Below, one piece after another: positions 630-3,836 of a stretch of DNA of 4,387 bases. Each line of letters starts with the position of its first letter. The stretch's first letter is position 1. A model generated the notes under the pieces. It was not told the origin of the DNA, searched no databases, and saw nothing but the letters and a program-made list of their open reading frames with translations. The position numbers and the translations under genes were made by a program. Location: the IMG/VR virus record IMGVR_UViG_2703719367_000020. One strand, written 5' to 3'. This DNA comes from a virus (Duplodnaviria > Heunggongvirae > Uroviricota > Caudoviricetes).

Positions 630-1087
630 ATGAAACTGTTAAACATTCTTTTAGCTGTTGTTTTAACTGTAAGTACAACCGTAGCACAAGCAGAATCGGC
701 ATTGTAGAAGCGTAACAGTGTTGCTGGCACCGATATGTTCAGTATCGGTAGTGTTTCTATTAACTGCACGATTAATCCAGAAGACAACAATTTGCTACCA
801 CATATGAGTGGATTTACGGTCATACCCCCACCCCGCTAAATCAGTACGATTCTGATATTATTTTTATCATCAACGGTAAAAAGTATTCGGCCCCACCTGT
901 CGACGGAACACGAATGAATAAGAATGCGTGGGTATACTTTATCGATGCTATCGGTGAAGCCACGAAGCTCGACGTTTTAGTAAACGGTAAGAAAGTCGAC
1001 AGCTATACCGCAAATATCAAAAATGAGAAAAAGACTTTGGGTAACAAATTCTACGGTAGCTGCTGGAACACCTGGTTCCAGGAATAA
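630..1087 (+). pseudogene. Disrupted gene for a small secreted protein: signal-peptide ORF ends at a premature TAG, and the C-terminal body is in a different frame
   Basis: GGGGAG (617-622) sits 7 nt before ATG 630. Translation 630-704 gives MKLLNILLAVVLTVSTTVAQAESAL, a Sec-type signal peptide with an AQA-E cleavage motif, then TAG 705-707. The same frame continues to TAA 837-839. A second frame is open from 776 to TAA 1085-1087 (…YDSDIIFIINGKKYSAPPVDGTRMNKNAWVYFIDAIGEATKLDVLVNGKKVDSYTANIKNEKKTLGNKFYGSCWNTWFQE) and has no ATG/GTG/TTG start before codon 914. Confidence 0.5.
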
Positions 1088-1211: not shown

Positions 1212-1751
1212 ATGAACTGGCATTATGAAAAAAATGGTGTACGTTATGATAACGTAACAGAGGAAGATATTATCGAACGTATCCGGCGTGGTGAACTGAA
1301 TGCATCAACACTGGTGTGGCAACAGGGCATGCTGGAATGGCAGCCAGTTTCAGCCACATCACTGGCGGAAATACTGAAACAAAGTGAAGTTCCTCCGGCC
1401 CTTCCGGGTCACCGCATTCCCGGAGACGTTGTCTGGACGCTGGCATTTGCCCCTTTGATTGGGTACATACTTGAGATGTGGACTGCCGGGCTGAACGGTA
1501 TGTCATTTGAACGGGCTTATGATGCAGTCAGCGAAGGCCAGTACTGGTTTATCTCTCTGATTCTGAATATTGCTCTGGGATATCTGGATGAACGAAAACT
1601 CCGTAAATCTGGTGTTGATACCACAGCATTTGGCTGGCTGGCATGGCTGATCCCGGTTTATCTGTGGCGTCGGGCAAAGATCCTCGGGCAAAAACCTGCT
1701 TATTTCTGGGTCTGGCTGGTTATGCTGATACTGGTGTTATTTACGATCTGA
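1212..1751 (+). CDS. Membrane protein with an N-terminal GYF-like (DUF4339-type) domain and about four C-terminal transmembrane helices; function unknown
   Basis: AGGAGA (1201-1206) sits 5 nt before ATG 1212; 179 codons to TGA 1749-1751. The N-terminus WHYEKNGVRYDNVTEEDIIERIRRGELNASTLVWQQGMLEWQPV matches the recalled W-Y..NG..G.V.......G.L...TLVW..GM..WQP pattern. Hydrophobic segments: VVWTLAFAPLIGYILEMW, YWFISLILNIALGYL, AFGWLAWLIPVYLW, AYFWVWLVMLILVLFTI. Confidence 0.8.
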   Translation: MNWHYEKNGVRYDNVTEEDIIERIRRGELNASTLVWQQGMLEWQPVSATSLAEILKQSEVPPALPGHRIPGDVVWTLAFAPLIGYILEMWTAGLNGMSFERAYDAVSEGQYWFISLILNIALGYLDERKLRKSGVDTTAFGWLAWLIPVYLWRRAKILGQKPAYFWVWLVMLILVLFTI

Positions 1752-2020
1752 TATTCTTTCTCGCAGAGTTTGCTAAATAATCAGGTTATTAGTGTTCTTA
1801 ACAGGTAAATGATGTTCATCATGGAACGGATATATTTTATTTGATTCAGGAGACAGTCAGAAACATAGTATAAATATATCACCATGTTGAAGGTCATATC
1901 TTCAGGTATGTGTTTAATAAACAAGTCGGGGGTTAATCCTGACCTCTCGAGTGGATTATAAGTATTGCAGAAACAGTTTTTATACTTTTCTTTAATATCA
2001 GAAACAATGGAGTATTTATC

Positions 2021-2434
2021 ATGAAAAATATCATCACTATTTTAATGATTGCAGTTATCAGTTTCTTTACTGCTAATGTATCAGCAAACAATGCCGTTCC
2101 TTTACCGACCAACCTGACTGACGTTACTGACGGTACAGAATTCTGGTGTCAGGGTACTGATACTATCGACGGAGGTTGTGAATACCTGGGCACATCCAAA
2201 GACATGCAATACGGTCTGGTACACGCCATGGGGGGTACAGCGTGCTGGGATGGTTTATACGGCGTAATTAATTTCTATACCGGTAAAGCCCAGACCATCA
2301 AATACAACAACAATCAAAGTTGTGAAGGCAACATCACCGCCGGTTTCGTTACCCTAAAAAACGGTAAACCGGGCGTTAAACTTTACGACAATACGATTCA
2401 TAAGATTGTCGGGCTTGACGAAATCAAAATTTAA
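2021..2434 (+). CDS. Small exported protein with signal peptide and four cysteines; function unknown
   Basis: GGAG (2009-2012) sits 8 nt before ATG 2021; 137 codons to TAA 2432-2434. The N-terminus MKNIITILMIAVISFFTANVSA is a typical Sec signal peptide (cleavage likely after VSA). The mature part has Cys in WCQG, GGCEY, TACWD and QSCEG. AT-rich codon usage; followed by a terminator. Confidence 0.8.
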   Translation: MKNIITILMIAVISFFTANVSANNAVPLPTNLTDVTDGTEFWCQGTDTIDGGCEYLGTSKDMQYGLVHAMGGTACWDGLYGVINFYTGKAQTIKYNNNQSCEGNITAGFVTLKNGKPGVKLYDNTIHKIVGLDEIKI

Positions 2435-2488: not shown

Positions 2489-2519
2489 CCTCTGCCATAA
2501 TGGCAGGGGCTTTATTTTT
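2489..2519 (+). terminator. Rho-independent terminator of the exported-protein gene
   Basis: CCUCUGCCA (2489-2497) pairs with UGGCAGGGG (2501-2509), 9 bp with one G.U, loop UAA, then cTTTATTTTT (2510-2519). Confidence 0.65.
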
Positions 2520-2844: not shown

Positions 2845-3663
2845 ATGCGATTAGCCAGTCGTTTTGGTTATACAAACCAGATACGCCGTGAACGTCCACT
2901 GACACATGAAGAGCTGATGCACTATGTTCCCAGTATTTTTGGAGAAGACCGGCATACCTCCCGCAGTGAACGCTATGCGTACATTCCCACCATCACCGTA
3001 CTGGAAAGTCTGCAGCGGGAAGGCTTTCAGCCATTCTTCGCCTGCCAGACACGTGTGCGTGACCCGGGTCGCCGGGAATACACAAAACACATGCTGCGTC
3101 TGCGCCGTGACGGGGAGATAACCGGACAACATGTCCCTGAAATTATTCTGCTCAACTCCCATGACGGTTCATCCAGCTACCAGATGCTGCCGGGTTACTT
3201 CAGATTCGTCTGCCAGAACGGCTGCGTCTGTGGTCAGTCTCTGGGAGAAGTGCGTGTTCCGCACCGGGGAAATGTGGTGGACAGAGTCATTGAAGGGGCT
3301 TACGAGGTGGTGGGCGTGTTTGACCGGATAGAGGAGAAGCGTGATGCCATGCAGTCGCTGGTCCTGCCGCCACCGGCACGCCAGGCACTGGCGCAGGCGG
3401 CACTGACTTACCGTTATGGTGACGAACATCAGCCCGTCACCACCGCCGACATTCTGACACCACGACGCAGGGAGGATTACGGTAAGGACCTGTGGAGTAC
3501 TTATCAGACCATCCAGGAGAATATGCTGAAAGGCGGGGTTTCCGGGCGCAGTGCAAAAGGAAAACGTATCCACACCCGTGCCATTCACAACATCGACACC
3601 GATATTAAGCTCAACCGCGCATTGTGGGTAATGGCAGAAACGCTGCTGGAGAGTATGCGCTGA
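2845..3663 (+). CDS. DUF932 family protein (YfjQ/YafZ-like, typical of CP4-type prophage-like islands)
   Basis: AAGGAG (2834-2839) sits 5 nt before ATG 2845; 272 codons to TGA 3661-3663. MRLASRFG…YIPTI…GFQPFFACQTRVRDP…HMLRLRR…PEIILLNSHDGSSSYQMLPG…RFVCQNG…EVRVPH…NRALWVMAETLL matches recalled E. coli DUF932 proteins. Family assignment is from memory, not a search. Confidence 0.88.
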   Translation: MRLASRFGYTNQIRRERPLTHEELMHYVPSIFGEDRHTSRSERYAYIPTITVLESLQREGFQPFFACQTRVRDPGRREYTKHMLRLRRDGEITGQHVPEIILLNSHDGSSSYQMLPGYFRFVCQNGCVCGQSLGEVRVPHRGNVVDRVIEGAYEVVGVFDRIEEKRDAMQSLVLPPPARQALAQAALTYRYGDEHQPVTTADILTPRRREDYGKDLWSTYQTIQENMLKGGVSGRSAKGKRIHTRAIHNIDTDIKLNRALWVMAETLLESMR

Positions 3664-3836
3664 TGAAACATATCCCTGAAGGCGTGATTCAGGTACCAGA
3701 ATCACCCGACGCCCCGGAGGCGCTGCCGGGGTGTCGTTCCATTTCTGATGATGACCTGTGCGCCTGGTGTACCCGTCTGCTTTACCGTCCCGGAGAACTC
3801 AGTCTGTGCAGACTGAGTACAGGCAATGGCATCTGA
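3663..3836 (+). CDS. Small hypothetical protein (57 aa), probably translationally coupled to the DUF932 gene
   Basis: ATG 3663-3665 overlaps the DUF932 TGA stop (ATGA at 3661-3665); GGAGAG (3648-3653) sits 9 nt upstream. Product MKHIPEGVIQVPESPDAPEALPGCRSISDDDLCAWCTRLLYRPGELSLCRLSTGNGI, stop TGA 3834-3836. The track's ATG 3624 start lies inside the DUF932 gene and is less likely. No family recognised. Confidence 0.45.
   Translation: MKHIPEGVIQVPESPDAPEALPGCRSISDDDLCAWCTRLLYRPGELSLCRLSTGNGI

Follow-up and report, generated by a model that had tools for sequence, protein, structure and literature searches.

The window, by which we mean the whole 4,387-nucleotide stretch of DNA that was analyzed, is 100% identical to the tRNA-Ser-associated island of E. 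coli O157 strains, and the island location proposed in the first-pass annotation was borne out. The gene under study, hereafter the target, is annotated in RefSeq as hypothetical protein WP_000789535.1. Its coordinates and those of its neighbors are collected in Table 1. Positions 1-498 of the window are the 3' end of a dynamin-RdcB-patatin operon. Farther upstream, the island of O157 strain 644-PT8 (locus L001, 1-20500) holds a type I restriction-modification system with embedded DarT/DarG, the Cah autotransporter, and the dynamin-RdcB-patatin genes. Given the restriction-modification system, DarT/DarG, and dynamin-RdcB-patatin, the left part of the island is rich in defense genes.

Table 1. 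The target gene, its parts, and its neighbors in the 4,387-nucleotide window.
Feature	Positions	Strand	Basis or remarks
yfjT-family pseudogene	630-1087	+	TGG -> TAG at 705-707 plus frameshift (2-nt loss)
GYF_2 (DUF4339) membrane protein gene, upstream of target	1212-1751	+	Accompanies the target allele in E. coli and Salmonella
Spacer	1752-2020	+	269 bp, 32% GC
Shine-Dalgarno GGAG	2008-2011	+	9 nt before ATG; read from sequence
Target ORF	2021-2434	+	ATG start, 137 codons / 137 aa
Predicted Sec (signal peptidase I) leader, residues 1-22	2021-2086	+	Hydropathy, -3/-1 rule
Mature domain, 115 aa, predicted periplasmic	2087-2431	+	AF2 model, Cys conservation, phrog_8968 match
Stop codon TAA	2432-2434	+	
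Intrinsic terminator	2489-2519	+	9-bp stem (6 GC), 3-nt loop, then CTTTATTTTT

The decayed secreted gene that had been put forward as a possible companion of the target is a yfjT-family pseudogene, which is unrelated to the target and adds a further gene for an exported protein to this island slot. An intact version of 152 aa is present in E. coli GXU-23-25-310 (WP_057698606.1); it resembles the PF27224 YfjT proteins of Yersinia and Pantoea and matches phrog_3429 (E 4e-5). The GYF protein carries an N-terminal GYF_2 domain, and its C-terminal membrane region matches the phage family phrog_12486 (E 5e-7), making this a further gene of the slot with phage relatives. The suggestion that homologs of the target might co-occur with the GYF gene is correct for the target allele itself in E. 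coli and Salmonella, and fails for the other alleles, which adjoin different exported proteins. The stretch 2532-2825, between the target's terminator and a DUF932 gene, holds remnants of a DUF905 gene, where Salmonella has an intact DUF905; RefSeq annotates two DUF905 pseudogenes here, at 2574-2713 on the minus strand and at 2681-2755 on the plus strand, and a second strong terminator-like hairpin follows the remnants at 2777-2806. An ORF of 57 aa that contains cysteine (3663-3836, plus strand; RefSeq hypothetical protein WP_001684385.1) runs across the stop codon of the DUF932 gene; Pfam gave no match for it. No RNA family was found in the window by Rfam.

The first-pass annotation described a good ribosome-binding site, a dedicated terminator, and an AT-rich spacer of about 270 bp, and all three are present; the terminator hairpin occupies 2489-2509 and starts 55 nt past the target's stop codon. 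Its conclusion that the target is probably an independent transcription unit does not follow as readily. The spacer holds no sigma-70 match better than 8/12, and no terminator was found between the GYF gene and the target ORF. Given the lack of an intervening terminator and of a strong sigma-70 promoter, the target's terminator may close a transcript that spans both genes. A promoter of the target's own in the AT-rich spacer is possible, and a GYF-target co-transcript is equally possible.

The predicted leader of the target begins with MK (Lys2), continues with the hydrophobic core IITILMIAVISFFTA over residues 3-17, and ends in the c-region NVSA. It contains a single -3/-1 site, which predicts cleavage after VSA and before NN, between residues 22 and 23. 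The mature protein has a mass of 12.4 kDa and a pI of 4.9. In the AF2 model of the target, residues 1-30 are disordered and the remainder is confidently predicted, with a pLDDT of about 90 over the domain, which is all-beta and consists of a short helix (residues 45-50) plus 7 strands. An N-terminal hydrophobic leader is present in all family members in the family alignments. The leaders in every relative, together with the disorder of the AF2 model to about residue 30, support export of the target. The four cysteines of the target are at positions 43, 53, 75, and 101; across 26 relatives, C43, C75, and C101 are invariant and C53 is nearly so (at least 90%), in the register C-x(8-10)-C ... C ... 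C. The export signal, the mature length of about 115 residues, and the four cysteines read from the sequence at first pass are therefore confirmed by the anatomy of the leader and by conservation among these relatives.

No family could be recognized in the target at first pass. In the PHROGs database, the target matches phrog_8968 with an E value of 9.1e-37, residues 1-135 aligning to positions 1-134 of a profile of 135, and the mature domain alone matches it with an E value of 1.4e-31. The members of phrog_8968 include SPN3US gp182 (SPN3US_0182 / YP_009153476.1) and gp203 of Erwinia phage Asesino. When 50,697 phage records were searched with tblastn, 53 matches came up, all of them in jumbo phages of about 240 kb, namely SPN3US-like phages of Salmonella and E. 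coli, the Erwinia phages Asesino, phiEaH2, and Stratton, and a Proteus phage. These jumbo-phage orthologs are 38-43% identical to the target over its full length. Structure comparison gave the same picture, with three jumbo-phage proteins in BFVD matching the target model in Foldseek (E 2e-10 to 2e-11, TM 0.71-0.77). The target and gp182 have in common their length, leader, four-cysteine register, and predicted fold (Foldseek E 2e-11, TM 0.76). They differ in setting: the phage copies sit in a run of exported-protein genes in lytic 240-kb genomes, whereas the island in the chromosome holds just one copy, the target, which has its own terminator. We consider it very likely that the target is an exported four-cysteine protein of this jumbo-phage and island family.

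In SPN3US, genes 180-183 form a run of four small genes, and every product has a leader. The products gp181 (phrog_17072) and gp183 (phrog_5248), which adjoin gp182, have the same four-cysteine register, and their alignment and the reciprocal cross-matches between the PHROG families identify them as paralogs of gp182. SPN3US-like jumbo phages of Salmonella, E. coli, Erwinia, and Proteus carry the family as these three neighboring paralogs. The order of gp180-like, gp182-like, and gp183-like genes is kept in two phage-like metagenomic contigs. We make no claim that gp180 (phrog_9424) is a homolog of this family or of the YfjS/YafY lipoproteins discussed below, since the hhalign probabilities are 3-6% and a lipobox is found in the SPN3US protein only. 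A spanin or lysis-cassette role for gp180-183 was rejected on general grounds, since the domains are beta-rich rather than coiled-coil and the islands have no lysis function. The annotation of the 222-kb record NZ_CP134650.1 (Enterobacter ludwigii 'plasmid unnamed1') calls it a non-mobilizable plasmid, but every gene shown encodes a hypothetical protein, and the genes flanking its family member follow the order of SPN3US; the record most likely represents the genome of a jumbo phage present in the culture.

An exhaustive HMMER scan of 1.84 billion representatives returned 18 proteins at E < 1e-3, indicating that the family is small and narrowly distributed. Searches of Pfam, NCBIfam, PADLOC, and PDB sequences gave no match for the target protein or for the 26-sequence profile, and 0 defense-protein families of PADLOC-DB matched the target at E <= 1. 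A literature search on SPN3US gp180-183, on the protein accessions, and on periplasmic exclusion by jumbo phages found nothing relevant.

Each bacterial copy that we examined occupies the same slot of a CP4-type (P4-integrase-like) island. To the left of this slot is a YeeP/YkfA-like GTPase gene, often followed by a WYL regulator or by the dynamin-RdcB-patatin operon, and to its right are DUF932, antirestriction, RadC, DUF987, and CbeA/CbtA genes. Island members of the 8968 type come from E. coli, two Salmonella lineages, Klebsiella, and others, and those of the 17072 type from Yersinia rohdei, Pantoea ananatis, and Salmonella. The Salmonella island carries, in order, a YfjS/YafY lipoprotein gene, a 17072-type gene, the GYF gene, and the 8968-type ortholog of the target. 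Among the copies examined, the family is thus restricted to mobile elements, namely enterobacterial jumbo phages and one slot of CP4-type islands. In a rough neighbor-joining tree, island and phage sequences are interleaved within both the 8968 and 17072 clades, suggesting several transfers between jumbo phages and islands. The same tree had suggested that the gp183 type is confined to phages, an idea that we dropped: YfjS/YafY and the C-terminal domains of two island proteins of 295 and 312 aa, described below, match phrog_5248.

The target ORF is a real gene under purifying selection. The Salmonella ortholog has 87% protein identity to the target, and comparison of the E. coli and Salmonella copies gives a dN/dS of 0.108 (dS 0.62). 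Within a second allele group, made up of sequences from Salmonella diarizonae, Klebsiella, and another enterobacterial assembly, dN/dS is 0.09-0.105. A dN/dS of about 0.1 in two allele groups indicates that this is a real gene and not a chance ORF. The large sequence clusters are intact (104 and 256 members), and truncated or frameshifted variants of the target are few. Poor conservation of the ORF, which the first-pass annotation had raised as an objection to its own reading, was not what we found, nor was any of the other objections that it named.

E. coli genomes frequently carry the family, of which the target represents the rarer allele. About 78 of 5,426 complete E. coli genomes carry the target. 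A second E. coli allele, WP_000846713.1, has about 35% identity to the target and a stronger match to phrog_8968 (E 2.6e-45); together with an upstream gene for a 227-aa exported protein, WP_001361977.1, it is found in 1,884-2,376 of the same 5,426 genomes (approximately 35-44%). The type strain ATCC 11775 has the two genes in its CP4-44 locus (L022, 9001-10110), and they are also present in locus L021 (NZ_LR890315.1, 5302-6411). This pair of genes is preceded by the same dynamin-RdcB-patatin operon as the slot in the window's island.

A more remote relationship extends to YfjS and YafY (Pfam PF20494), lipoproteins that are encoded in K-12 by the cryptic prophages CP4-57 and CP4-6. The mature domains of YfjS/YafY match the gp183 family, phrog_5248, with E values of 3.6e-5 and 2.3e-4. 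When the full-length family was aligned by hhalign to a 16-sequence YfjS/YafY profile, the probability was 46.8% and the score 30.6, as compared with 11.9 ± 2.7 for 200 column shuffles, 0 of which reached 30.6; the equivalents of C75 and C101 align. Without the leaders, the probability falls to 2% and the score to 17.1, as compared with 10.8 ± 2.0 for shuffles, 2 of 200 reaching the score. The best viral structural match of the YfjS AlphaFold model, which is moderately confident (pLDDT 65), is A0A1B2IBY1 in BFVD, and this is also the best match of the target. The PF20494 profile itself has no match to the target at E <= 1 (the Pfam gathering threshold being 27 bits), and a single one of the 26 family members reaches E 0.12, with none better. 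Taken together, YfjS/YafY are probably superfamily relatives of the target rather than fellow members of its family, and of the family proteins gp183 is probably the closest to them.

The target and YfjS/YafY share the island slot, a similar size, a predicted short helix plus 7 strands whose spacing is alike in the AlphaFold models of the target and YfjS, and the C-terminal cysteine pair. They differ in that YfjS/YafY lack the N-terminal cysteine pair and have a lipobox with an invariant C23 followed by a nearly invariant D24, whereas the leader of the target contains no cysteine, and hence no lipobox, and ends with VSA before NN; signal peptidase I is predicted to cut the target, which should be soluble. 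An Asp at position +2 after the lipobox cysteine is the classical signal for retention in the inner membrane. Since YfjS/YafY keep only the C75/C101 pair, we infer two disulfides in the target, C43-C53 and C75-C101. Where inspection by eye recognized no family, these searches provide phrog_8968, orthology to gp182, the paralogs gp181 and gp183, and a probable remote link to YfjS/YafY.

What might such a protein do? After export, DsbA would form the C43-C53 and C75-C101 disulfides, and the target would then act in the periplasm as a non-enzymatic binding module. Several observations argue for a binding module: conservation falls mostly on Cys, Gly, and aromatic residues; identity between alleles from the same slot of the same species is as low as about 35%; and soluble, lipid-anchored (YfjS/YafY), and domain-fused versions of the family all exist. 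No conserved constellation of polar residues with a catalytic look was seen, and no enzyme family matched. Export, disulfides, restriction to mobile elements, the three phage paralogs, and the combination of divergence between alleles with purifying selection within them point to a periplasmic protein-binding module whose partner varies. Insofar as we infer a function, no reading serves better than the early suggestion of a periplasmic protein of the binding, inhibitor, or immunity type.

By analogy, the partner could be a component of the envelope or of the virion that the target would bind during entry, so protecting the carrier (or infected) cell from an incoming phage. The phage proteins T4 Sp and Imm, T5 Llp, and phi80/N15 Cor are small phage-made envelope proteins that attach to a receptor or to a component of the entry process and block a second infection, some of them from strictly lytic phages. 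The analogy is one of function, since no relationship of sequence or fold to the target was found; moreover, Llp and Cor sit in the outer membrane as lipoproteins, and Sp and Imm are likewise proteins of a membrane, whereas the target is predicted to be soluble. If the target does serve to exclude incoming phage (or DNA) at the envelope, which we favor over the other roles considered here but propose tentatively and regard as somewhat doubtful, then the islands would carry phage-type exclusion genes. We put the package as a whole, comprising the family identity, the binding module, and the exclusion role, at slightly short of an even chance.

Against exclusion, no PADLOC model matches the target, and the only phenotype reported for any relative is the activation of Cpx by overproduced YafY, which points to envelope signaling instead. 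The target might instead modulate envelope stress, acting on Cpx (through the CpxA sensor domain, CpxP, or NlpE-type signaling) and resetting the envelope for the island or phage. YafY, an inner-membrane lipoprotein, is one of only two E. coli lipoproteins that activate Cpx when overproduced, as PMC6538781 states with reference to earlier work. YfjS/YafY are probable relatives of the target, and the Asp at +2 places that relative in the inner membrane, beside CpxA. However, overproducing a lipoprotein can induce Cpx simply through non-specific stress, and deletion of yafY had no phenotype in the trafficking-stress assays of PMC6538781. In addition, the target is predicted to be soluble rather than anchored in a membrane and is only distant kin of YafY. 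We view Cpx modulation by the target as rather unlikely.

Equally improbable, in our estimation, is that the target is a periplasmic inhibitor of peptidoglycan hydrolases, either host lytic transglycosylases or the lysin of an incoming phage tail, working with Ivy-like partners; such inhibition could also be the molecular basis of an exclusion function. In other islands, a family member adjoins homologous exported proteins of 227, 295, and 312 aa. The N-terminal parts of the 295- and 312-aa proteins (L014, 7060-7947; L011, 8476-9414) have sub-threshold matches to Ivy, including a C-x4-C-G loop (PF08816, E 0.0014 and 0.007; PDB 4ps6/1uuz, E 0.1), and their C-terminal domain is the family domain (hhalign 68%, E 4.8e-5, with the four cysteines aligned; phrog_5248, E 1.9e-5). 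These two proteins are possibly an Ivy-like domain fused to a family domain. However, the Ivy matches of the slot neighbors stay below the threshold, have Kunitz matches as competitors, and do not extend to the 227-aa protein, which makes them a weak lead. The target as predicted resembles Ivy (inhibitor of vertebrate lysozyme; 1uuz, 4ps6) in being a small periplasmic disulfide-containing protein, and Ivy-like domains may adjoin or be fused to family domains in sister islands; the target itself has no match to the Ivy profile (PF08816) or to a fold with a CKPHDCG-type loop.

A lectin-like module of two propeller-like blades, possibly oligomerizing, that binds peptidoglycan, LPS core, or periplasmic glucans strikes us as quite improbable. 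Still less credence goes to an orphan immunity protein against a toxin that acts in the periplasm, such as a T6SS, CDI, or colicin-type effector. The target is a small, predicted disulfide-bonded periplasmic protein of an island and has divergent alleles (35% identity) in one slot, as would suit an immunity protein. However, no effector, Rhs, VgrG, or CdiA gene adjoins the family member in any of about ten contexts examined, strictly lytic jumbo phages carry orthologs as a fixed set of three paralogs, and neither PADLOC nor Pfam immunity families match. A hitch-hiking or decaying ORF without a current function is the least credible and disfavored account, for although the neighbors in the window have decayed (the yfjT and DUF905 pseudogenes) and a few broken variants of the target exist, the two allele groups are under purifying selection, the large clusters are intact, and the four cysteines are kept across phage and island copies.

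Returning to exclusion, a bolder version would take gp181/182/183 and their island counterparts (17072-type, 8968-type, and YfjS/YafY) as a module of disulfide-bonded beta-proteins of the periplasm, traded repeatedly between SPN3US-like jumbo phages and CP4-type enterobacterial islands, that forms an unrecognized exclusion system, which we judge unlikely. With such a module, the phage would shut the envelope behind itself, and the islands, which a large share of E. coli carries, would use captured copies against jumbo phages or other phages. If this were true, the divergent alleles would be specificity groups, and yfjS and yafY would gain a first function.

Apart from any role, the family links the jumbo-phage proteins gp181-183 and, probably, YfjS/YafY, so that several hypothetical proteins become one testable superfamily. 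Between roughly one third and almost one half of the complete E. coli genomes carry some allele in their CP4-44/CP4-57-type islands, among them those of O157:H7, ST131, and the type strain. If the function is exclusion or envelope signaling, then it matters for the host range of jumbo phages under consideration for therapy and for the benefit of CP4-type islands to their hosts; if nothing can be measured, then the target is one more conserved exported protein with a function still to be assigned.

Two database records with island content are labeled otherwise. NZ_LR890315.1 (Klebsiella oxytoca 'plasmid 4', a 29-kb circle) is a CP4-44-type island module that contains dynamin, RdcB, patatin, the slot genes, DUF932, antirestriction, RadC, and CbeA; instead of a plasmid, this circle could be an island that has been excised. 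JAEWTL010000095.1 ('MAG: Bacillota bacterium') holds enterobacterial island genes, including a GTPase gene whose product is 92% identical to a Salmonella protein, and this contig is probably mis-binned.
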